NCBI GenBank assembly: GCA_964016885.1
Contig: OZ024754.1
Location: forward strand, 17,112,001 to 17,176,000
Source: Eledone cirrhosa
Taxonomy: Eukaryota
Reading direction: 5' to 3'
Length of the DNA: 64,000 nucleotides
Shown: positions 2,585-57,960 of the stretch, piece by piece
How positions within the stretch are numbered: position 1 is the stretch's first letter
Layout of the letters: every line of letters begins with the position of its first letter
Notes under the pieces: generated by a model
The model's database searches: none
What the model saw: only the letters and a program-made list of their open reading frames with translations
What the model was told of the DNA's origin: nothing
Translations under genes and position numbers: made by a program

Positions 2585-2593
<9 letters not shown>

Positions 2594-2993
2594 TAAACAA
2601 ATAATGAATAAACAATTCCTTATATTAAACAAAAAAAGTTCATTATTTAACGATCGTTTCTAGGATATATATGTGTTAGAGTTGGCATGCATATTCAACA
2701 GATCTATGTACAAAATTATACAAAATTATACAAACTATCAAGATTAAATATACATACCAACACATATATACGCCGTCTTCAGAAATAATTTATTTCTGAA
2801 GACGGCGTATATATGTGTTGGTATGTATATTTAATCTTGATAGTTTGTATAATTTTGTATAATTTTGTACATAGATCTGTTGAATATGCATGCCAACTCT
2901 AACACATATATATCCTAGAAACGATCGTTAAATAATGAACTTTTTTTGTTTAATATAAGGAATTGTTTATTCATTATTTGTTTAATATTTTAT
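2585..2993. repeat. Perfect palindrome, 204-bp arms, 1-nt centre (2789)
   Basis: The arms are reverse complements throughout (...cgccgtcttcagaaataa t ttatttctgaagacggcg...). Confidence 0.95.
2790..2935 (+). ncRNA. Type I hammerhead ribozyme motif with enlarged stem-loop II (mirror copy on - strand 2643-2788)
   Basis: ttattt-CTGAAGA(2796)-stem II (tatatatgtgttgg/ctaacacatatata)-GAAA(2918)-cgatc-GTT^-aaataa. Stem III is the palindrome ACGATCGT. The base of stem II has mismatches. Confidence 0.6.
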
Positions 2994-3242
2994 CTTGACT
3001 CTGTATACCGTTTATCTTTCACCGAAAGTGATTTTTCATTACATTTCTTCTTTCCATGATATCCGGAATACATTGAGTTCTTCATACGGATTGGACACTA
3101 CCGTAAACTCTTGGTAGATTTATCTACATATATATATATATATATATTTATTAAAATAACAGATTAAAGTTTAAGCAAAGAATCGCTGCTTTCACCCACT
3201 TTGGATTTTAGTCTTCAGATTTATTATTATTACTATATATAT

Positions 3243-3507
3243 ATAGTTATGTAATAAACAACATAAGGCAATTATTTCATTTACCAGTAGTTTCTTGAAA
3301 GCAAACAAATTTTGCTTTCAATCATCAGAATGAAAAAATCCTGGTGTATTTATTGACATTGGATTTTAAAAACCTAGTTTTTAAAATGCAATGTCAATAA
3401 ATACACCAGGATTTTTTCATTCTGATGATTGAAAGCAAAATTTGTTTGCTTTCAAGAAACTACTGGTAAATGAAATAATTGCCTTATGTTGTTTATTACA
3501 TAACTAT
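3243..3507. repeat. Near-perfect palindrome, about 131-bp arms, centre 3375
   Basis: aaaaac cta gttttt centre with one mismatch. A unique tail 3508-3575 follows; a related copy lies at 15340-15481. Confidence 0.95.
3411..3479 (+). ncRNA. Type I hammerhead ribozyme motif (mirror copy on - strand at about 3271-3339)
   Basis: tttcatt-CTGATGA-ttgaaagcaaa/atttg/tttgctttcaa-GAAA-ctactg-GTA^-aatgaaa. Stem I is 7+ bp, stem II 11 bp, full core, GUA cleavage triplet (cut after 3468). Confidence 0.75.
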
Positions 3508-4298
3508 TAAGCTCTGTAACCTACATAGAGCACTCTTTTTTCCTGGACCTTTCCGATGGAATTACTTCATTCACACATATATATATATATAGTCGAGGCC
3601 TATAAAAGGAGGTGTTTGTGTATAAAACAATTTGCTGTACATTCAAGCTAGTTCAATGATATTTAAGTAGAAGACAATGTGGTCTCTGCTTGAAATATTA
3701 TATGTTGTCATATTAAGTTGTCGCAGTATTAAGTATATGTCATGTCTCTTTGGTGATGCTGTTTCAATATGTTCAGCTGCAATCATATCTAGATATTTAA
3801 GTTATATATAGAGGCTTAGTGGTTAGAGCATTGGGCTTGCAATCGAAAGGTTGTGAGTTCAATTCTCAGACCGGGTGATGTGTTGTTTCCTTGATTTCAC
3901 ATTGCTCCAGTTTACTCAGCTGTAGAAATGAGATGATAGCGACTGGGGTCCCTATCATTCCACTGCAAAGTGGTCGTGGAGGTGCCACGGCAAAAAAGCA
4001 CCCAGCACTCACTGTAAATGAGGTTGGTGTTAGGAAGGGCATCCAGCTGTAGAAATCGAGCCAGAATCAGTTCCCGTCCCACCCTTGCAAGCAGGGAAAA
4101 GCGGACGTAAAATGATGATGATGATGATGATGATGATGTATATATAACTTGTGTGAGAGTGTATATATGATATATATGTGAATGTGTGTGTGTATGTATA
4201 TATGTATATATATATATATATCAAAGGTATATATTGAGTTAGAAAATAGTCTCTTACAATTAAAAAGCTCAAGGAAAGAGGTTTTTCCGAGCCGTGTA

Positions 4299-4420
4299 AT
4301 ATAATTGAATATAAAAGAGAGATAAACACAGATATATACATATATGTGTTCAAATCTGGCTCCTTACGATTTGAACACACATATATGTATATATCTGTGT
4401 TTATCTCTCTTTTATATTCA

Positions 4421-4427
<7 letters not shown>
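4299..4427. repeat. Fold-back palindrome, about 58-bp arms, 11-nt loop
   Basis: atataattgaatataaaagagagataaacacag...gttcaaatc tggctccttac gatttgaac...ttcaattatat. Confidence 0.88.
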
Positions 4428-14470: not shown

Positions 14471-15202
14471 TGTATTACAGTTTGGAGGATTTACATTAGA
14501 CCTTTTTATTGCTTTAATCAACTTGCATGATGCTTAAAACTCATCTTTTCGGTCAGCCATTTTATAACCTGTCTTACATATTTGTGTCTTTTAAAATAGA
14601 CTGTTTTTTAATAACTATAATTTTTGGAATATGGCTTGGTATATTTGGGATATGTGATTGCAACAATTAATTAATTAATCTGCAAATCATTATTTCTATA
14701 TTTTTGCAATTGTATTTTGTTAAAATTGAAATGATCATAAATTAAACTTCAGGCACAGATCCATGGTTTTTCGAGACCGATGGATGCCAATAACAATAAC
14801 GTGTGTGTATATATGTATATATACTTATATATGCACACATATACACACATATATATCATCATCATCATCATCATTTCATTTTACGTCCGCTTTCCCCTGC
14901 TTGCAAGGGTGGGACGGGAACTGATTCTGGCTTGATTTCTACAGCTGGATGCCCTTCCTAACACCAACCTCATTTACAGTGAGTGCTGGGTGCTTTTTTG
15001 CCGTGGCACCTCCACAACCACTTTGCAGTGGAATGATAGGGACCCCAGTCCCTATCATCTCATTTCTACAGCTGAGTAAACTGGAGCAATGTGAAATAAA
15101 GTGTCTTGCTTAAGGAAACAACACATCACCCGGTCTGAGAATTGAACTCCCAACCTTTCGATTGCAAGTCCAATGCTCTAACCACTAAGCCATGTGCCTC
15201 CT

Positions 15203-15308: not shown

Positions 15309-15342
<34 letters not shown>

Positions 15343-16439
15343 GAAGTAATTCCGTCGGAAAAGTCCAGGAAAAAAGAGTGCTCTATGTAGGTAACAGAGC
15401 TTAATAGTTATGTAATAAACAACATAAGGCAATTAAACCACTGGTAAATGGAATAATTGCCTTATGTTGTTTATTACATAAATATATATATATATATATA
15501 TATACATATATACACACACACACACATTACACACGTTGTTGTTGTTATTGTTATTGTTGTTATCATCCATCGGTCTCGAAAAACCATGGATCTGTGCCTG
15601 AAGTTTAATTTATGATCATTTATGATAATAATTGTTTCTACTTTTGGCACAAGGCCAGCAATTACCCAGTGTATTACTGGTACTTCATTTTATCGACCCT
15701 GTAAGGATGAAGGGCAAAGTTAACCTCGGCGGGATTTGAACTCAGACCGTAAAGGGCCGTAACTCTATGCTGCAAAGCATGGTGTCCGACTCTCTACTGA
15801 TGCTGCCAATCCACCATCATTTATGATAATAATAATAATATATATATTATTATTATTATTATCATCATCATCGACCTCATTTAACATTGATTTCCCTGCT
15901 AGGAAGGGTTGGATGGATCTTCACAGACCGACTCAGTGCTCAAGTTGAGTTACTGACCTTGGAGACAGACTGGGAGTTTACAGCTTGCTTACTATATAGT
16001 CATCATTAGTTTTACAGTTACTTTTCCATGCTTACATGGGCTGGACCATCAGCAATAGTATACCTTCGCTTATCTTCAATGTCACACTACCTTCACACAA
16101 AACACAATTCTTTGAGGGAACCTCTATGCAATGGCTTTAACTGCTGGAAGTGGTAGCATTCTCTTTCTCAAAGCACATGTGATAGTGTAGCACAAGGTAC
16201 ATCATCCACCTCCTCCTTCTTCTTCTTCTTCTTCTTCTTCTTCTTCTTCTTCTTCTTCTTCTTCTTCTTCTTCTTTATTCTGTTAGGAGAAAAGGCTGTG
16301 TTAGGTGTCTATATGTATGTGTGTGTGTATATATATAATTTCTCATATAGGATGGCGATATTTGTGTATGATAAAAAGCTGTGTTAGGAGATCACCATTT
16401 CCTATCCCACCTCCACCACCTTCGGTATACATGCCTGAC

Positions 16440-19400
16440 GCTGTATGCTAACCACTCCCTCGTGCATATACCACCTTAAACCCAATTCCGCTCAGAGCAG
16501 ACATGGGGTGGATGGAGGCTCTGTAAGCCGTAGTGTAGGCAACCTGTCTAGGAGAGCTACCACTCCGAATAAATTGGTCCCCTAAGTCCACTAAGATGAC
16601 TTCCCTAGTGCTGGTAGCACGAATAAAAGCACCCGGTCCATGCTGTAAAATGGAGGTAATGGTAGTAGCATTCAGCTATTAAAAACTATGCCAAACTATG
16701 GGGTGGAGGGGGCCGCTGAGTCCAGTAAGACAACCCCTCTAGTGCTGGTGGCACAAATAAAAGCACCCAGCCCATGCTGTAAAGTGGTGCTGGTGTTAGG
16801 AAGGGCATCCAACCAGTGTATTAATGCCAAAACAATTATGAGCACAACAACAAATATATATCGCAATAACTGCGTGAACAGCAATAAAACTAACCATGTT
16901 AGGGCTGTGCACGGTAGTGGGGTGGCTAGTACGGCCATGTGTGAGAAACCCTGGACCGTCATCAAGCAATCGCACAACAACATTATTATAAACCATTTTT
17001 CATTGCAGAAAAAGAAGAAACAATGAAATACTCATATCTCAGGGTTGCCACACTTAATGTTGGCACCCTGACAGATAGATATGGTGAGATAGTGGAGATG
17101 TTAGAGAGAAGACATGTAGATGTGTGCTGTGTGCAAGAGGTGCGATGGAGAGGTGCCTCTGCAAGACTAATCGCAGGCAAACATCTTAGCTATAAGCTTT
17201 TCTGGGTAGGAAATGATGATGGGTTAGGTGGGGTGAGCATTTTACTGGCTGAGAGATGGATGAATAAGACAATAGAGGTAGTTCGAGTTAGTAATCGAAT
17301 AATTAAGATTAGATTAGTTGTAGGCAAGAGACTACTGATAATCATCTCTATCTATGCTCCCCAAGCAGGCCTAGGCAAAGAAGAGAAAGACGGCTTTTAC
17401 GAGCAACTTCTAGAAACAGCCTCAATGACAGAGGACAGAGACCTAGTTATACTAACAGGGGACTTCAATGGTCATGTTGGACAGCTCCAGGATGGATACA
17501 CTGGGGTACATGGTGGTCACGGTTATGGCTCAAGAAATGAAGAAGGAGTGAGGCTTCTTGAATTTTGTGATGCAAGTGAACTAGCCATTTGCAACGCTAA
17601 CTTCAAGAAACCTACGAACCACCTAATAACCTACAAATCAGGCAAGCACATAAGCCAGATTGACTTCCTGCTAGTTAGACAACGAGACTGATAGATGGTG
17701 TCAAATACTAAGGCATACCCTGGGGAAGAATGTACCCCCCCCCCCCCTCCCAGCATAGGTTAGTTGTTAGTGTCATCTCAATAAGCAAGAGACAAAATGA
17801 GACATACAGGAAGGTGTGGAAAAGGAAGGTCTGGAAGCTAAAAAACCTTTCACTAAAATATAAATTTAGGAAAACCCTTCAAGATGTATGACGAAAAAGA
17901 AGACGAGTTAGAATCGAATGACAGATAATGACTGGAATTTTTTATGTGACAACTTACTGCAAGCTACTGAAGAAATTTGTGGCTGGAGCAGAGCTCCGAC
18001 CTGACAGACAGTGACCTGGTGGTGGAACAGCACAGTAGATAAGGCCATTAGAGACAAAAGACTAGCATCAAAGGCTTGGAAAAAATGGTGGGAGTAGAGA
18101 CCGATACACAGCCGCTAAGAGAGAAGCTAGACATCAGGTGTATTTAGCACACAGGGAAGCTGAGAGTAGGAGGTTTGCCAATGTTCTGCAGTATTCCGCA
18201 TTGCAAGGCAGTGTGTCACTATAAATCAGGATGTTGTTGGAGATAAGTGTGTCCGATATGATGCTGGTGTTCTTAGTGTCACTGATGCTCAGAAAAAGGA
18301 GGCCTGGAAATGTCATTATCAGAGACTGATGAATGTTGAGAACGAATGGGAGAGAAAGAAATTACCCTCAGTAGATCCGACAGAGGGACCAGCTATTGAG
18401 ATTGATGACTATAGGGTCAAAGAAGCAATTAAGGAAATGAAAGGTGGTAAGGCCGCTGGACCGTTGGGGATAGTTGCTGAGATGCTGAAGGCATCAGGAG
18501 AAGTAGGAACTAAACTGGTTGCACACATCATCAATCAGGCTATAAATGATGGTGTCATACCCAAAGACTGGTGCAGCAGTATTCTTATAAATTACTACAA
18601 AGGTAATGGGGATGCTCTGGAGAGGAGCAATTATAGGGGCATAAAACTGATGGATCAGGTTATGAAAGTGGCAGAGAGAATACTAGCATAACTAATTAGA
18701 GAAAGGGTCAAATTAGATAAGATGCAGTTTGGTTTTGTGCCTGGGAAAAGTACAACAGATGCCCTCTTCTTAGTGAGGCAACTACAAGAGAGGTTCTTAG
18801 AGGAGAATAATCCACTATACTTAGCTTTTGTTGACCTAGAGAAGGCCCTTGATAGGGTACCCCGATCTGCCATCTGGTGGTCCCTAAGGAAACTAGGTGT
18901 AGAGGAATGGCTTGTGAGGACAGTGCAAGCTATGTACAGGGGTGCTGTCAGTAAAGTGAGAGTAGGAATGGAGTTTAATGAGGAATTCCAGATACAAGAG
19001 TGTATCAGGGTTTGGTCCTCAGCTTTTGTTCATTATAGTCCTCCAAGCCATAATATAGGAGTTTAAGACTAGCTGTCCATGGGAACGTCTCTACACTGAC
19101 GATCTGGTACTTATAGCAAAATCAGTGGAGGAGCTAGAGTATAAATTCTGGCTCTGGAAACGGCAGTTGGAATCAAGAAGACTGAGAGTGAACATAGCTG
19201 TTGATAAGTAGAAAAGAGGACAATACTCTGATTCCATCAGGGAAATGGCTATGTTAGATTTGTAGAAAAGAAGTTGGCATAAATTCTATAAAATGTTCAC
19301 AATGCAGTTCTTGGGTACACAAGAGATGTAGTGGGATAGCAGGCAAACTAACAGGTAGCGAAAACTACACATGCAGTAGATGTACAGGGAAATTTGACAG

Positions 19401-20030: not shown

Positions 20031-20531
20031 ACCATTACCATCAGCATCATTTAGATATTAGTAGTGATATGTGTGGTTGATTGGTGCTGATTTTGCTGTT
20101 ACATTGACAAATCTCATTCCTTCATTGAGTTTGATTCAAGAATGATTATAAAATTATATGTTGTACTGATCTAATTAATAATTTTTTAAAGAATCATTTG
20201 AAGCATTTAATGACCTTAAAATCTGAAAATACTTAATTACATCGAATGTTGCTTAAGTTTTGATAGGAATCAAATTTTTAAGAAGTAGCTTAATGGCTAC
20301 TCATTTTAAAGTATAGTCAGTTGTGTGGTTTCTTGTAGTTTATGTGGTTGAGGTCAAGGTAAGAGGAGTAAGCTATAGGGAGTTGCGAGGGAGAAGCTAG
20401 TGTATAATACAATAAACGAGATAAAACTTGTTTAAATACTGTATATGTTTTGTGTGTGTTTGTTTGAATGTAAGTAAGCGTATGTGTAAAATGTATTCTT
20501 TTAAGATGTTTCTTTTTCACTCTACATACAG

Positions 20532-53861: not shown

Positions 53862-56800
53862 TCATCATCATCATCGTTTAATGTTATTTTTCCACGCTAC
53901 CATGGGTTTAGATGGGAATTGTCCTCCTGGAGGCAAGATTGGTTGTCTTGCTCATATAGGACTGTCTGGCAGGTTTTCTACGGCTGGATGCCCTTCTTAA
54001 CACCAACCACGTTTACAGTGTGGAACTGTGAGGTTTTTACCGTGTTACCTACACGGCCACATTACAGCGTGGATTGTGTGTTTTTTTGTCGTGACACCTA
54101 CACGACCTCGTTTATTTAGGACTGGATGTTGTGGTACCAACATAACTTTACAGAGAAAGAGGTGGTGTTGATGGGGTGGGGGTGGGGTAGTGGGGAGGGG
54201 TATATTTGATTAAGAGGTGCCTACTGACTGTAGGTTTCGCTTTGTACTTAGGCAAGGCGGGTCTTCTGTATTACTGTGTAGCGCCAAAGATCTAGGTCCA
54301 GTGACATTGTCTTAGAGAGGTGTAAGTGTGTAAGGTCGGAATTTATCAAATTGTCCCAGGTTTTTCTGGGTCTGCCTACTCTGTAACTTCCATCAATTTT
54401 GATCGCCCTGCACTTTTTTATACAGCTGTCGTCTTTCATGCACATCACGTGACCATACCAATGTAGTCTTCTCTCGAGTAAACAGCATCTGATCCCTCTT
54501 ATTCCTAATTTCTCACTTAGTTCATTTATGCTTTGCTGTTCACGTATATTACTATTACACATCCAACGGAGCATGCATGCTTCGTTCCTTTCCAGTCTGC
54601 GCAAGTCCTCTGCACACAATGCCCATGTCTCACTGCCATGTAGCATTGGTGTTCGTATACAAGCATCATACAATCTACCTTTGATTTTTAGAGAGAAACA
54701 TTTAGCGGCCAATAGTGGTATAAGCTCTCTGAACTTTTTCCATCCCGTTCTGACTCTGGCTACTGTACTTTCAGAGCACCCTCCACCACTGCTGATTTTG
54801 TCACTCGGGTAACGAAGGTGTCTACTATTTCTATAGAGCCATCTGGGCAATAGAAGGAGCTAGTATCCTGTGGGCACTTGCTATTTATTGCACCTGAGCA
54901 CTAACCACATATAAAATCTGCGTTCTTAGATAGCTTACCTGTGATCTCACTACATCTTTTATGCACCCATACTTTGCATTTGGGACATAAGAGGGGACCT
55001 GTGCCTTATTTTCCTTCCTACATACTAGAACTTTAGTCTTAGACAAGTTAACTTTAAGGCCTTTTGATTCTAGGCCATGCTTCCATGTTTGGAATTTCTT
55101 CTCTAGTTCAGCCATCGATTCAGCTATGAGCCTTAGATCATCTGCGTATAGAAATCCCCATGGGCAGCCGGTCTTGAACTCCTCTGTTATAGTCTGAAGG
55201 GCAATAATAAATAGGAGGGGGCTAAGGACAGAGCCCTGATGAACACCAACTTTTACGCTAAATTCTTCACTATATTCGTTGTTAATTCTAACCTTACTGA
55301 CTGTTTCTTTATACATAGCTTGTATAGCTCTCACAAGCTATTCATCAATCTCTAGTTTTCTAAGGGCCCACCAGATAATGGTGCGGGAGGACTCTGTCAA
55401 AGGCTTTCTCCAAGTCGACAAAAGCTAAGTATAGGGGTTTATTTTTAGCTAGGTACTTCTGTAGTTGTCGTACAAGGAAAAGGGCGTCTGTTGTACTTTT
55501 ACCTGACACAAACCCAAACTGCATTTCATCTAGATCAATTCGCTCTCGGATTAGTTGCACTATAACTTTTTCTGTGACCTTCATGACCTGGTCAATTAAT
55601 TTAATGCCTCTATAGTTTCCCCTATCTAGGGCATCTCCTTTACCCTTGTAGCAGTTAATGATGATGCTGCTATGCCAGTCATTTGGTATGACCCCATTTT
55701 GTATGACTTGGTTTACTACCCGGGAGACCATAGTGTGTCTCACCATTCCAGATGCTTTCAGCATTTCAGCAACTATCTCCGAAGGCCCAGCTACCTTGCC
55801 CGTCTTCATATCTTTGATTGCCTTACTTATTATACTACCTTCAACTAGCACTGCTGCTCCCTCTATTGGATCGATTTGGGGCAGACTATCTTTTTTCCAC
55901 CTATTCTCCTCATTTAGTAGCCTCTGGTAGTGACACTTCCAAGCTACCCTCTTATCAGCATCAGTGATAGCAAGTACACCATCATCATTACGGACACACT
56001 TCTCCCCGACAATATCACGGTTTTCCTTGACACATTGCCTAGCAATCCTGAACACCTCACATTTTTGCTCCTCGCATTGTAGAACATACTTGAACTTTCT
56101 TTCCTCTGCTTCCCTTCTTGCAAGGTACACTTGTCTCTTAACTTCTCTCCTGGCTACTTGATAGTATTCTCTACTTCCCCCATCCTGCCATATTTTCCAA
56201 GCCTGCTTTTTGGCCTTGATAGACTCCTCCACCTTACTGTTCCACCACCACGTTACTCTCCTCCTGTCTATAGGTCTGCTCCAGCCACAGATTTTATCTG
56301 TCACCTTCAGTAGGTTTGCTTTCAGGAATTCCCACTGTTCCTCTATATTGTACGACTCTAAATGCTCTTCCTTACTGTCAAAAGCATCAAGTAATATGCT
56401 TTTAAATTTATTACTGGCTGTGGGGTCCTTTAACTTCCCTATTCTTCTCCTTAGGGTAGTCCTCCTCTGTTGTCGAGTGCGTCTCGTCCTGACTATGAGG
56501 TCGCTAACTATGAGGCTATGTTGGGAGGTGCATTCTTCACGGGGGAGGGATTTAGTGTTTACAACCGACACTCTGTCACGTCTTCTGGTAAGGATATAAT
56601 CTGGCCTGTTCCCCTGATCTATAGGTGATCAAGTGATTGTCTCGTTTTTTGAAGTTTGTGTTACAGATAGTTAGGTTATTAGTGTTACAGAATTCCAGGA
56701 TTCTGAAGCCTTCCTCATTTCTGGTACCAAACCCGTAGCCTCCATGGATTCCGTCATAGCCATTAGAATGTTGTCCAACATGACCATTTAAGTCGGCTGC

Positions 56801-57960
56801 AATAATTATGTAGTCACTGTCGGTTATTTGGGAGGTAGTGAGCATTAGCAACTCATAGAATCTGTCTTTTATAACGCCAGGCAGTCCAGATTGGGGTGCA
56901 TAAGCGGATATTATTGTCACAGTAGTTCTATTTAGGACAAGTCTTATTTTAATTATTCTCTCGTTCACTCTATTTACATCTATTATCTTATCTACCCATT
57001 TTTCTGCTAACATAATTCCTACTCCACCCAGCCCATTGTCTTTTCCCACCCAGAAAAGTTTATAACATGGTTTTTTACCCACAATGAATCTAGTAGACCC
57101 ACCCCTCCACCTGGTCTCTTGAACACAGCAAACATCGACTTCCTTACATTCAAGCATGTCTACAACCTCGTTAGAGCGACCTTTTAAAGTGCCTACATTC
57201 ATGGTACCAACTCTGAAGTTTTGGATTGCATTTGGTGGTTGAGAAGGAGGGGTTGGAGGCGCAGAGAGGGGTGAGGGAGATGGGGTTATGTTAGCCATCT
57301 GCGGCCGAAATAAAGAGGATCCTTGCATTTTCGTCCGGCAACATGAGGTGAATTTATCTTTATTTTTGACATTGTCATTGAGTGTCCAGATTTGTCAGTC
57401 TCTTCAGAATTCTATAGTCCACCTAGCATATCGAAAAGCAACCAGGTCTAAACTTAACGAGGCGGTGGTTTTGTGAAAGAGATTGGTAAGAGAAACATAT
57501 TATAAGCCGCTGAATTATGATTGGACCAAATAGTAATGGTAGCGAGTGGGGGGTGGGGAGGGATATGGGGAAGTTAACTAGAAGGTTATTTTTATAATAT
57601 ACTCCTGCAAATTCGACCATAATTAAACAAACATATAACAGTAATCAGAGTTTAAATATGAGAAGAAGATTGTTTTGAGGGTCTGACAGAATTATGGGAG
57701 TTTAAAATACAAGAAGATTTTTGTGAAGGTCTGACAGAATTATCGAATAACATTGAAAAGATTGGATTCTAAGTTAAACGGGCGATATGATACTGATAGG
57801 TAGATGGACTAGGAAAACATTGGAGAGATGTGAAAAATAGGGTGAAATACATTACATTTCTCAAAAGCAAGCATTCGGCCAAGATTAGTTTAAATTTATT
57901 AATAAACAAGCGAAAGGCTAACTGTTGCCAAAGAGTGCCTAACAGTGTTTTAATCCTGGA
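53862..57960 (-). mobile_element. Near-full-length decayed RTE-clade LINE
   Basis: Consecutive frameshifted ORFs 57328-56576 (APE), 56571-55360, 55334-54885 (GVHQGSVLSPLLF, LYADD) and 54850-54248. The 3' UTR ends in (ATG)n at 53862. The 5' boundary is approximate. Confidence 0.95.

Follow-up and report, generated by a model that had tools for sequence, protein, structure and literature searches.

A palindrome with a hammerhead motif on both strands, lying between TRPM exons of Eledone cirrhosa, is an ordinary end of a Penelope-like element

How did a hammerhead ribozyme motif come to lie on both strands of a short palindrome in what appears to be a TRPM intron, and does the host gene need protection from it? 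The initial annotation of the window (the whole stretch of 64,000 nucleotides analysed here) had proposed that the motif is tolerated because the upstream arm of the palindrome, already transcribed, could sequester the downstream ribozyme. We are highly confident of a simpler account: 3243-3575 is the short, protein-free 3' end of a Hydra-clade Penelope-like element (PLE), inserted in (TA)n between TRPM exons, likely primed on two strands and joined head to head, and its hammerhead is the ordinary ribozyme of the element's pLTR.

The palindrome (3243-3507) is 265 nt long, with two 131-nt arms, a 3-nt centre and a single mismatched pair (3362/3388). The positions of arms and motifs confirm that a 265-bp palindrome places a hammerhead motif on each strand. 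SLOG-domain exons lie on the + strand upstream of the window, and TRPM2-like exons were found on the + strand at 20505, 40834 and 49000 (150 of 278 candidate frames scanned). Since TRPM exons on + stand on both sides of the palindrome, we infer with good support that it lies within a TRPM intron transcribed on +, as had been presumed. The features of the locus are the following.

3232-3242, no strand: (TA)n target, left flank
3243-3373, - strand: inverted, 5'-truncated PLE pLTR arm, terminating at the first fixed end of the family (the mirror image of 3507) and adjoining (TA)n
3275-3335, - strand: mirror copy of the hammerhead, starting at 3328, antisense to TRPM
3374-3376, no strand: 3-nt centre where the arms are joined head to head, different from the family's upstream sequence
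3377-3507, + strand: direct arm, from a Hydra-clade PLE: its 3' end (pLTR) as far as the first fixed end
3415-3475, + strand: type I hammerhead motif, with stem I at 3415-3421/3469-3475, CUGAUGA at 3422-3428, stem II (11 bp) at 3429-3455, GAAA at 3456-3459, stem III ACUACUGGU at 3459-3467 and A3468 as H17, the cut being predicted after A3468
3508-3575, + strand: tail on one side only, about 65 nt long and made up of the first part of the next unit's 5' UTR, with a GCUC...GAGC stem at about 3511-3532
3576-3591, no strand: (CA)/(TA)n target, right flank

The + strand motif has every part of a type I hammerhead: a CUGANGA and GAAA core, three stems and an NUH cleavage site. The complete core, the 11-bp stem II and a stem I of 7 bp or more, all described in the initial annotation, are present in the sequence, and the 7 contiguous pairs of stem I are extended beyond one mismatch. 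Of 30 windows shuffled locally (an approximate dinucleotide-block shuffle), none produced a motif of this strength and one produced a loose motif of any kind, while the bare core pattern has 8 matches in the window against a mean of 2.5 in shuffles, with none of 100 shuffles reaching 8. Rfam returned no hammerhead at the gathering threshold, nor among 53 matches at E<=10, and its sub-threshold matches were generic hairpins of the miRNA type only.

Within its family, the window copy is a weaker one. Against the family majority it has changes at 3 of 195 positions. The one that weakens the ribozyme is C3461T, a rare T that turns stem III from the family form ACCACUGGU into ACUACUGGU. Exact matches in the genome to the 26-mer across the cut site number 4,574 for the family form vs 70 for the window form. 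The predicted self-duplex of stem III drops from -8.2 kcal/mol in the family to -3.6 kcal/mol in the window, and the predicted hammerhead fold is -12.6 kcal/mol for the window copy vs -14.3 kcal/mol for the family. The reading of stem III as quasi-palindromic and suited to a dimer is upheld, but "best-formed" does not describe a copy whose stem III pairs with itself less well than the far commoner family form. The U-A pair closing stem II is there as had been pointed out, yet it is nothing exceptional: U-A is often the first stem II pair among the Hydra hammerheads tabulated in the supplement of Craig et al. (2021, PMC8557442).

The core is intact in 318 of 319 cells from 29 close copies, chosen for similarity. 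Among relatives N7 varies among U, G and A, stem changes are mostly compatible with pairing (95.8% of cells paired) and 2 of 8 relatives picked by hand have lost the first stem II pair; covariation over the eight hand-picked rows did not rise above shuffles (184/500). Compared at the sequence level, the source elements give modest signs that the ribozyme may be under selection in them.

The stretch 3377-3575 belongs to a high-copy repeat, with 2,044 candidates in the 3.0-Gb genome and 40 scored copies at 96-100% identity. Two fixed ends account for all of the 30 family-form loci listed first, 20 stopping at the point that corresponds to 3507 and the other 10 at about 3571-3577 (query positions 128-131 and 199-201, respectively). 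All 30 of these ends run into (TA)n or (CA)n, as do the flanks of the window copy. A few bases past each fixed end stands a GCUC...GAGC stem followed by ACUC, as seen in the window (3511-3532) and, past the end of the tail, in two other loci (L035 and L071). Tailed ends (window 3572-3577 and many copies) also often show a short CA run before the (TA)n that is missing from the 5' UTR of full copies, and which is either derived from the target or added during priming.

Head-to-head pairing is a recurrent state of this family, though not the rule. An adjacent inverted arm ending at 130-134 (the 3507 point) is present in 9 of the 40 scored copies, the window included, and 12 close head-to-head pairs occur among the first 100 matches listed, which extrapolates over 4,574 to roughly 500 short palindromes in the genome. 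At 26 distinct sampled sites, 6 have a partner arm inside the 3-kb locus, one further pair lies 4.5 kb apart, and 20 show no inverted arm within about 1.5 kb. Both arms of the window copy carry the rare variant (T3461/A3289), and it is the only close pair among the 70 T-variant matches. In the other T-variant loci with a partner arm, that partner has C in 5 of 6, one being uninformative; the two arms usually mutate independently and are not routinely homogenised, and we rejected routine arm-to-arm conversion as a rule.

What is this repeat the end of? The window copy itself has no ORF, yet two loci that match its arm closely (L035 at 97.4% and L071 at 95.4%) continue into a frame 90-91% identical to a 714-aa protein, P0001. 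The frame of full copies begins about 105 nt after position 3571, and P0001 is a single ORF that has a reverse transcriptase (RT) plus, at its C terminus, a GIY-YIG endonuclease (EN), linked in this way to the pLTR of the window. It contains RWK, DKT, YRDD, a CxCX5C linker and CxxC..E..N..CxH, with YRDD and VY...YVG read by eye. RWK is shared with L071, as is SDKT, in which DKG has changed to DKT; by eye, the N-terminal GxKF/Y and CCHH are absent. Pfam searched with P0001 gave no RT or GIY-YIG match and nothing informative. The hammerhead lies downstream of the frame on the same strand (L031, L078, L079, L067-L077), placing the motif in the pLTR.

These motifs indicate that the parent is a Hydra-clade PLE, a membership that rests on them. 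Insertion is into (TA)n, as in that clade, and the architecture is that of PLE insertions: at the 5' end stands a 5'-truncated copy in inverted orientation, and a tail is present on one side. Size departs from the "generally short (<3 kb)" description of the clade, as a sister subfamily has a tandem period of about 4.3 kb, because of a long, microsatellite-rich 3' UTR; in Craig et al., <3 kb is worded as a tendency, no strict criterion (PMC8557442). The family's 3' UTR, as seen in L070 4355-6860, is 1.5-3 kb long and rich in microsatellites, and it attracts nested insertions into its own (TA)n.

Other insertions surround the locus. The neighbour at 2585-3130 is a perfect 409-bp palindrome with a tail of about 137 nt, from another Hydra-type family with the same architecture. 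All 40 scored copies of that family are 100% identical, 22 of them with an inverted arm, and intact 824-aa frames, 40% identical to P0001, are arranged in tandem, the period being about 6.9 kb; the family looks very recently active. It too has a hammerhead motif, found at +2796 and -2782, whose stem II is 115 nt long and whose stem III is palindromic. A short head-to-head remnant of the same family as the window copy lies at 15340-15485, where the turn falls inside the hammerhead and leaves no intact motif. More short inverted repeats adjoining (TA)n, at 4299-4427 and 2195-2274/2501-2580, are probably remnants of other insertions. Broken fragments of LINE-type RT/endonuclease are found in the TRPM gene span (16945-19063 on + and 54888-57394 on -), and partial tRNA-like matches barely over the Rfam threshold (3813-3869 on + and 15137-15192 on -) would probably be the heads of a tRNA-derived SINE.

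The way in which the two arms were joined can be approached by analogy with the Poseidon element PAc, described as cutting and extending both strands, with two RT starts that bound the tail (PMC11167929). On that model we infer priming on two strands: the element's endonuclease would cut both strands of (TA)n, each cut end would prime reverse transcription at one of the two fixed internal starts, and the two short cDNAs would be joined head to head. The hammerhead would be the element's standard pLTR ribozyme, predicted to act on multi-unit RNA, either in dimeric form or together with the protein of the element; in the account given of PAc, the hammerhead requires the element's protein and cleavage is dispensable for insertion in vitro (PMC11167929). 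Alternatively, the same element could have produced the palindrome by fold-back and self-priming of a single cDNA, as Arkhipova et al. proposed for such junction palindromes (PMC3846280), and the rare T shared by both arms (3461/3289) in the only close pair of its kind points that way. The shared variant fits a single template RNA equally well, though, the independence of arms at other T-variant loci (partner C in 5 of 6) goes against a fold-back origin, and the arms end at two different fixed points, like the two RT starts that PAc uses in vitro (PMC11167929). We consider self-priming unlikely, if worth keeping in mind, and two-strand priming the better description.

Two further rival origins can be named. 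A fold-back artefact of sequencing or assembly could be suspected, as no read or contig among those listed bridges the central junction of the window locus (short-read runs, multi-copy reads). Against this, the two arms are not identical (one site differs) and stop at unequal points that are fixed in the family, many copies have the same architecture with different turning points, and head-to-head joints of this PLE family occur at many positions in independent short-read contigs; we give an artefact hardly any credit. Retrozymes carry a type I hammerhead with a palindromic stem III. The same combination in the window could suggest a non-LTR retrozyme, or an intronic ribozyme domesticated to regulate TRPM; the locus shows a single head-to-head pair and no tandem non-coding monomers, its relatives run into a coding PLE frame, and compared with the family majority the copy has changed at just 3 of 195 positions, with a loss of ribozyme strength at one of them. 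Such origins are extremely improbable, and a truncated PLE end remains our reading.

We then come to tolerance. With the host gene on +, the antisense arm is transcribed first, and folding of the whole palindrome gives a predicted -199.6 kcal/mol with the core bases paired at P>=0.997, so that sequestration by the upstream arm holds up as a prediction. It is a different matter to claim that the hammerhead is potent in TRPM pre-mRNA and that the copy is tolerated only through sequestration, which we find improbable in spite of this fold. Any head-to-head PLE insertion has this geometry automatically, 20 of the 26 sites, sampled without regard to genes, have no nearby arm, and stem III is weakened in the window copy. 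Published metazoan PLE hammerheads either show no cleavage as monomers, with low cleavage of one motif as a dimer (PMC4209133), or need the element's protein (PMC11167929), and splicing can go on without a continuous transcript, according to a review (PMC5126111). A motif on both strands, as described at the outset for this locus, is the usual inverted 5' arm of a high-copy PLE, a 5' inverted copy with the motif on both strands being tabulated for Penelope-13_HM (PMC8557442 supplement).

The TRPM gene itself does not help to decide. Beyond two palindromes, no non-palindromic sense-strand hammerhead was found in the window and four 10-kb upstream stretches, where four loose core matches do not fold as hammerheads; therefore, the gene offers no internal test of sequestration. 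The window copy is probably silent in TRPM pre-mRNA, because it stands alone, because its stem III is weakened and because folding is predicted to lock it in a 131-bp hairpin. Such silence is a by-product of insertion geometry and not an adaptation, and nothing shows that sequestration is needed to explain tolerance. A 131-bp intronic hairpin might also be a substrate for RNA editing or small-RNA pathways.

A younger sister subfamily (L067-L077, L153-L221), in which many 714-aa frames are intact, has a second hammerhead motif inside the element, lying 0.3-0.7 kb past the stop codon and 0.9-1.8 kb ahead of the terminal GUA motif; the window's own subfamily has no internal motif. The internal cut site reads GUG, contrary to the NUH rule. 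Its G17 pattern has 710 exact matches and, with duplicates removed, G17 is found in 53 of 53 internal-type motifs and A17 in 64 of 65 terminal-type ones, 11 being unclassified, in a sample that was partly picked by G17 patterns. With N17 left free in the pattern, G stands in 95 of the first 100 matches listed, and both A copies inspected are terminal. Pairs that have diverged least differ at as few as 5 of 83 positions, G17 included. GUG is one inherited event.

Stem II of the internal motif has decayed, its core is changed in two copies with intact frames (L067 and L068), and retention of the core falls short of significance (P 0.13-0.56, under a pattern biased towards intact cores). One suggestion would be that the internal copy was disabled since cutting there would be harmful, which we hold as a tentative possibility. 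A more elaborate one, that it serves as an uncleavable helper, keeping its catalytic core to act in one transcript as the dimer partner for the terminal GUA cut, seems rather doubtful. If this helper reading were true, it would mean that PLE hammerheads cut in vivo and that a monomeric RNA can satisfy a dimer-dependent ribozyme. A narrow literature search found nothing on internal inactive GUG hammerheads in PLEs.

The locus is an ordinary truncated, inverted Hydra-clade PLE end with a standard hammerhead motif. In itself it matters little, being one of roughly 500 short palindromes of a known retrotransposon type. The family is of more interest as material. Its ends run to thousands and stop at two fixed points, some relatives are young and intact, and one subfamily has the internal GUG hammerhead; together these could test what PLE hammerheads do in vivo and how an inverted arm and a tail arise.

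Comparison with known systems places the window family close to the Hydra clade as characterised by Craig et al. (PMC8557442). Both have RWK, DKT, the CxCX5C linker, CxxC/CxH in the EN and a (TA)n target, and both have a canonical 3' hammerhead with a 4+1+4 palindromic stem III. An octopus family, Hydra-1_Obim, is among the Hydra hammerhead entries of the supplement, but it is a different family: its hammerhead sequence is another, and a count by eye over one RT block found about 60 of 99 residues identical. Type I fold, long helix II and a weak palindromic helix III suited to dimers are shared with the metazoan PLE hammerheads of PMC4209133, where dual motifs on opposite strands 100-700 bp apart are also known; the G10.1-C11.1 pair, highly conserved there, is not the first pair in the window family, whose helix II is longer (10-11 bp).

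Likeness extends, less completely, to other elements. As presented by Frangieh et al. (2024, PMC11167929), Poseidon PAc of Anolis shares two RT starts bounding the tail, an AT-rich target and a hammerhead upstream of the starts, but it belongs to a different clade and its ORF begins inside the hammerhead, whereas the frame of the window family begins well after the tail. The Penelope elements of Adineta vaga (Arkhipova et al. 2013, PMC3846280) share head-to-head inverted pLTRs, junction palindromes and an optional one-sided tail; in the portions of that paper on these junctions, they differ in being low-copy, in having TSDs and in being read as self-priming, with no hammerhead analysis. Metazoan non-LTR retrozymes, in the part of the preprint that describes them (bioRxiv 10.64898/2026.07.22.740005), share a type I hammerhead, non-coding insertion and a relationship to PLEs, yet they are tandem non-coding monomers, while the window copy comes from a coding element, of which it is a truncated end. 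The hammerheads of the Hydra clade, the inverted 5' copies that put the motif on both strands and the two internal starts of RT have all been published before. In the window family they come with a unit of about 4.3 kb against <3 kb in the printed descriptions of Hydra (PMC8557442), a microsatellite-rich 3' UTR, thousands of copies and a tail of about 65 nt against the published 30-40 nt, the length given for PAc (PMC11167929).
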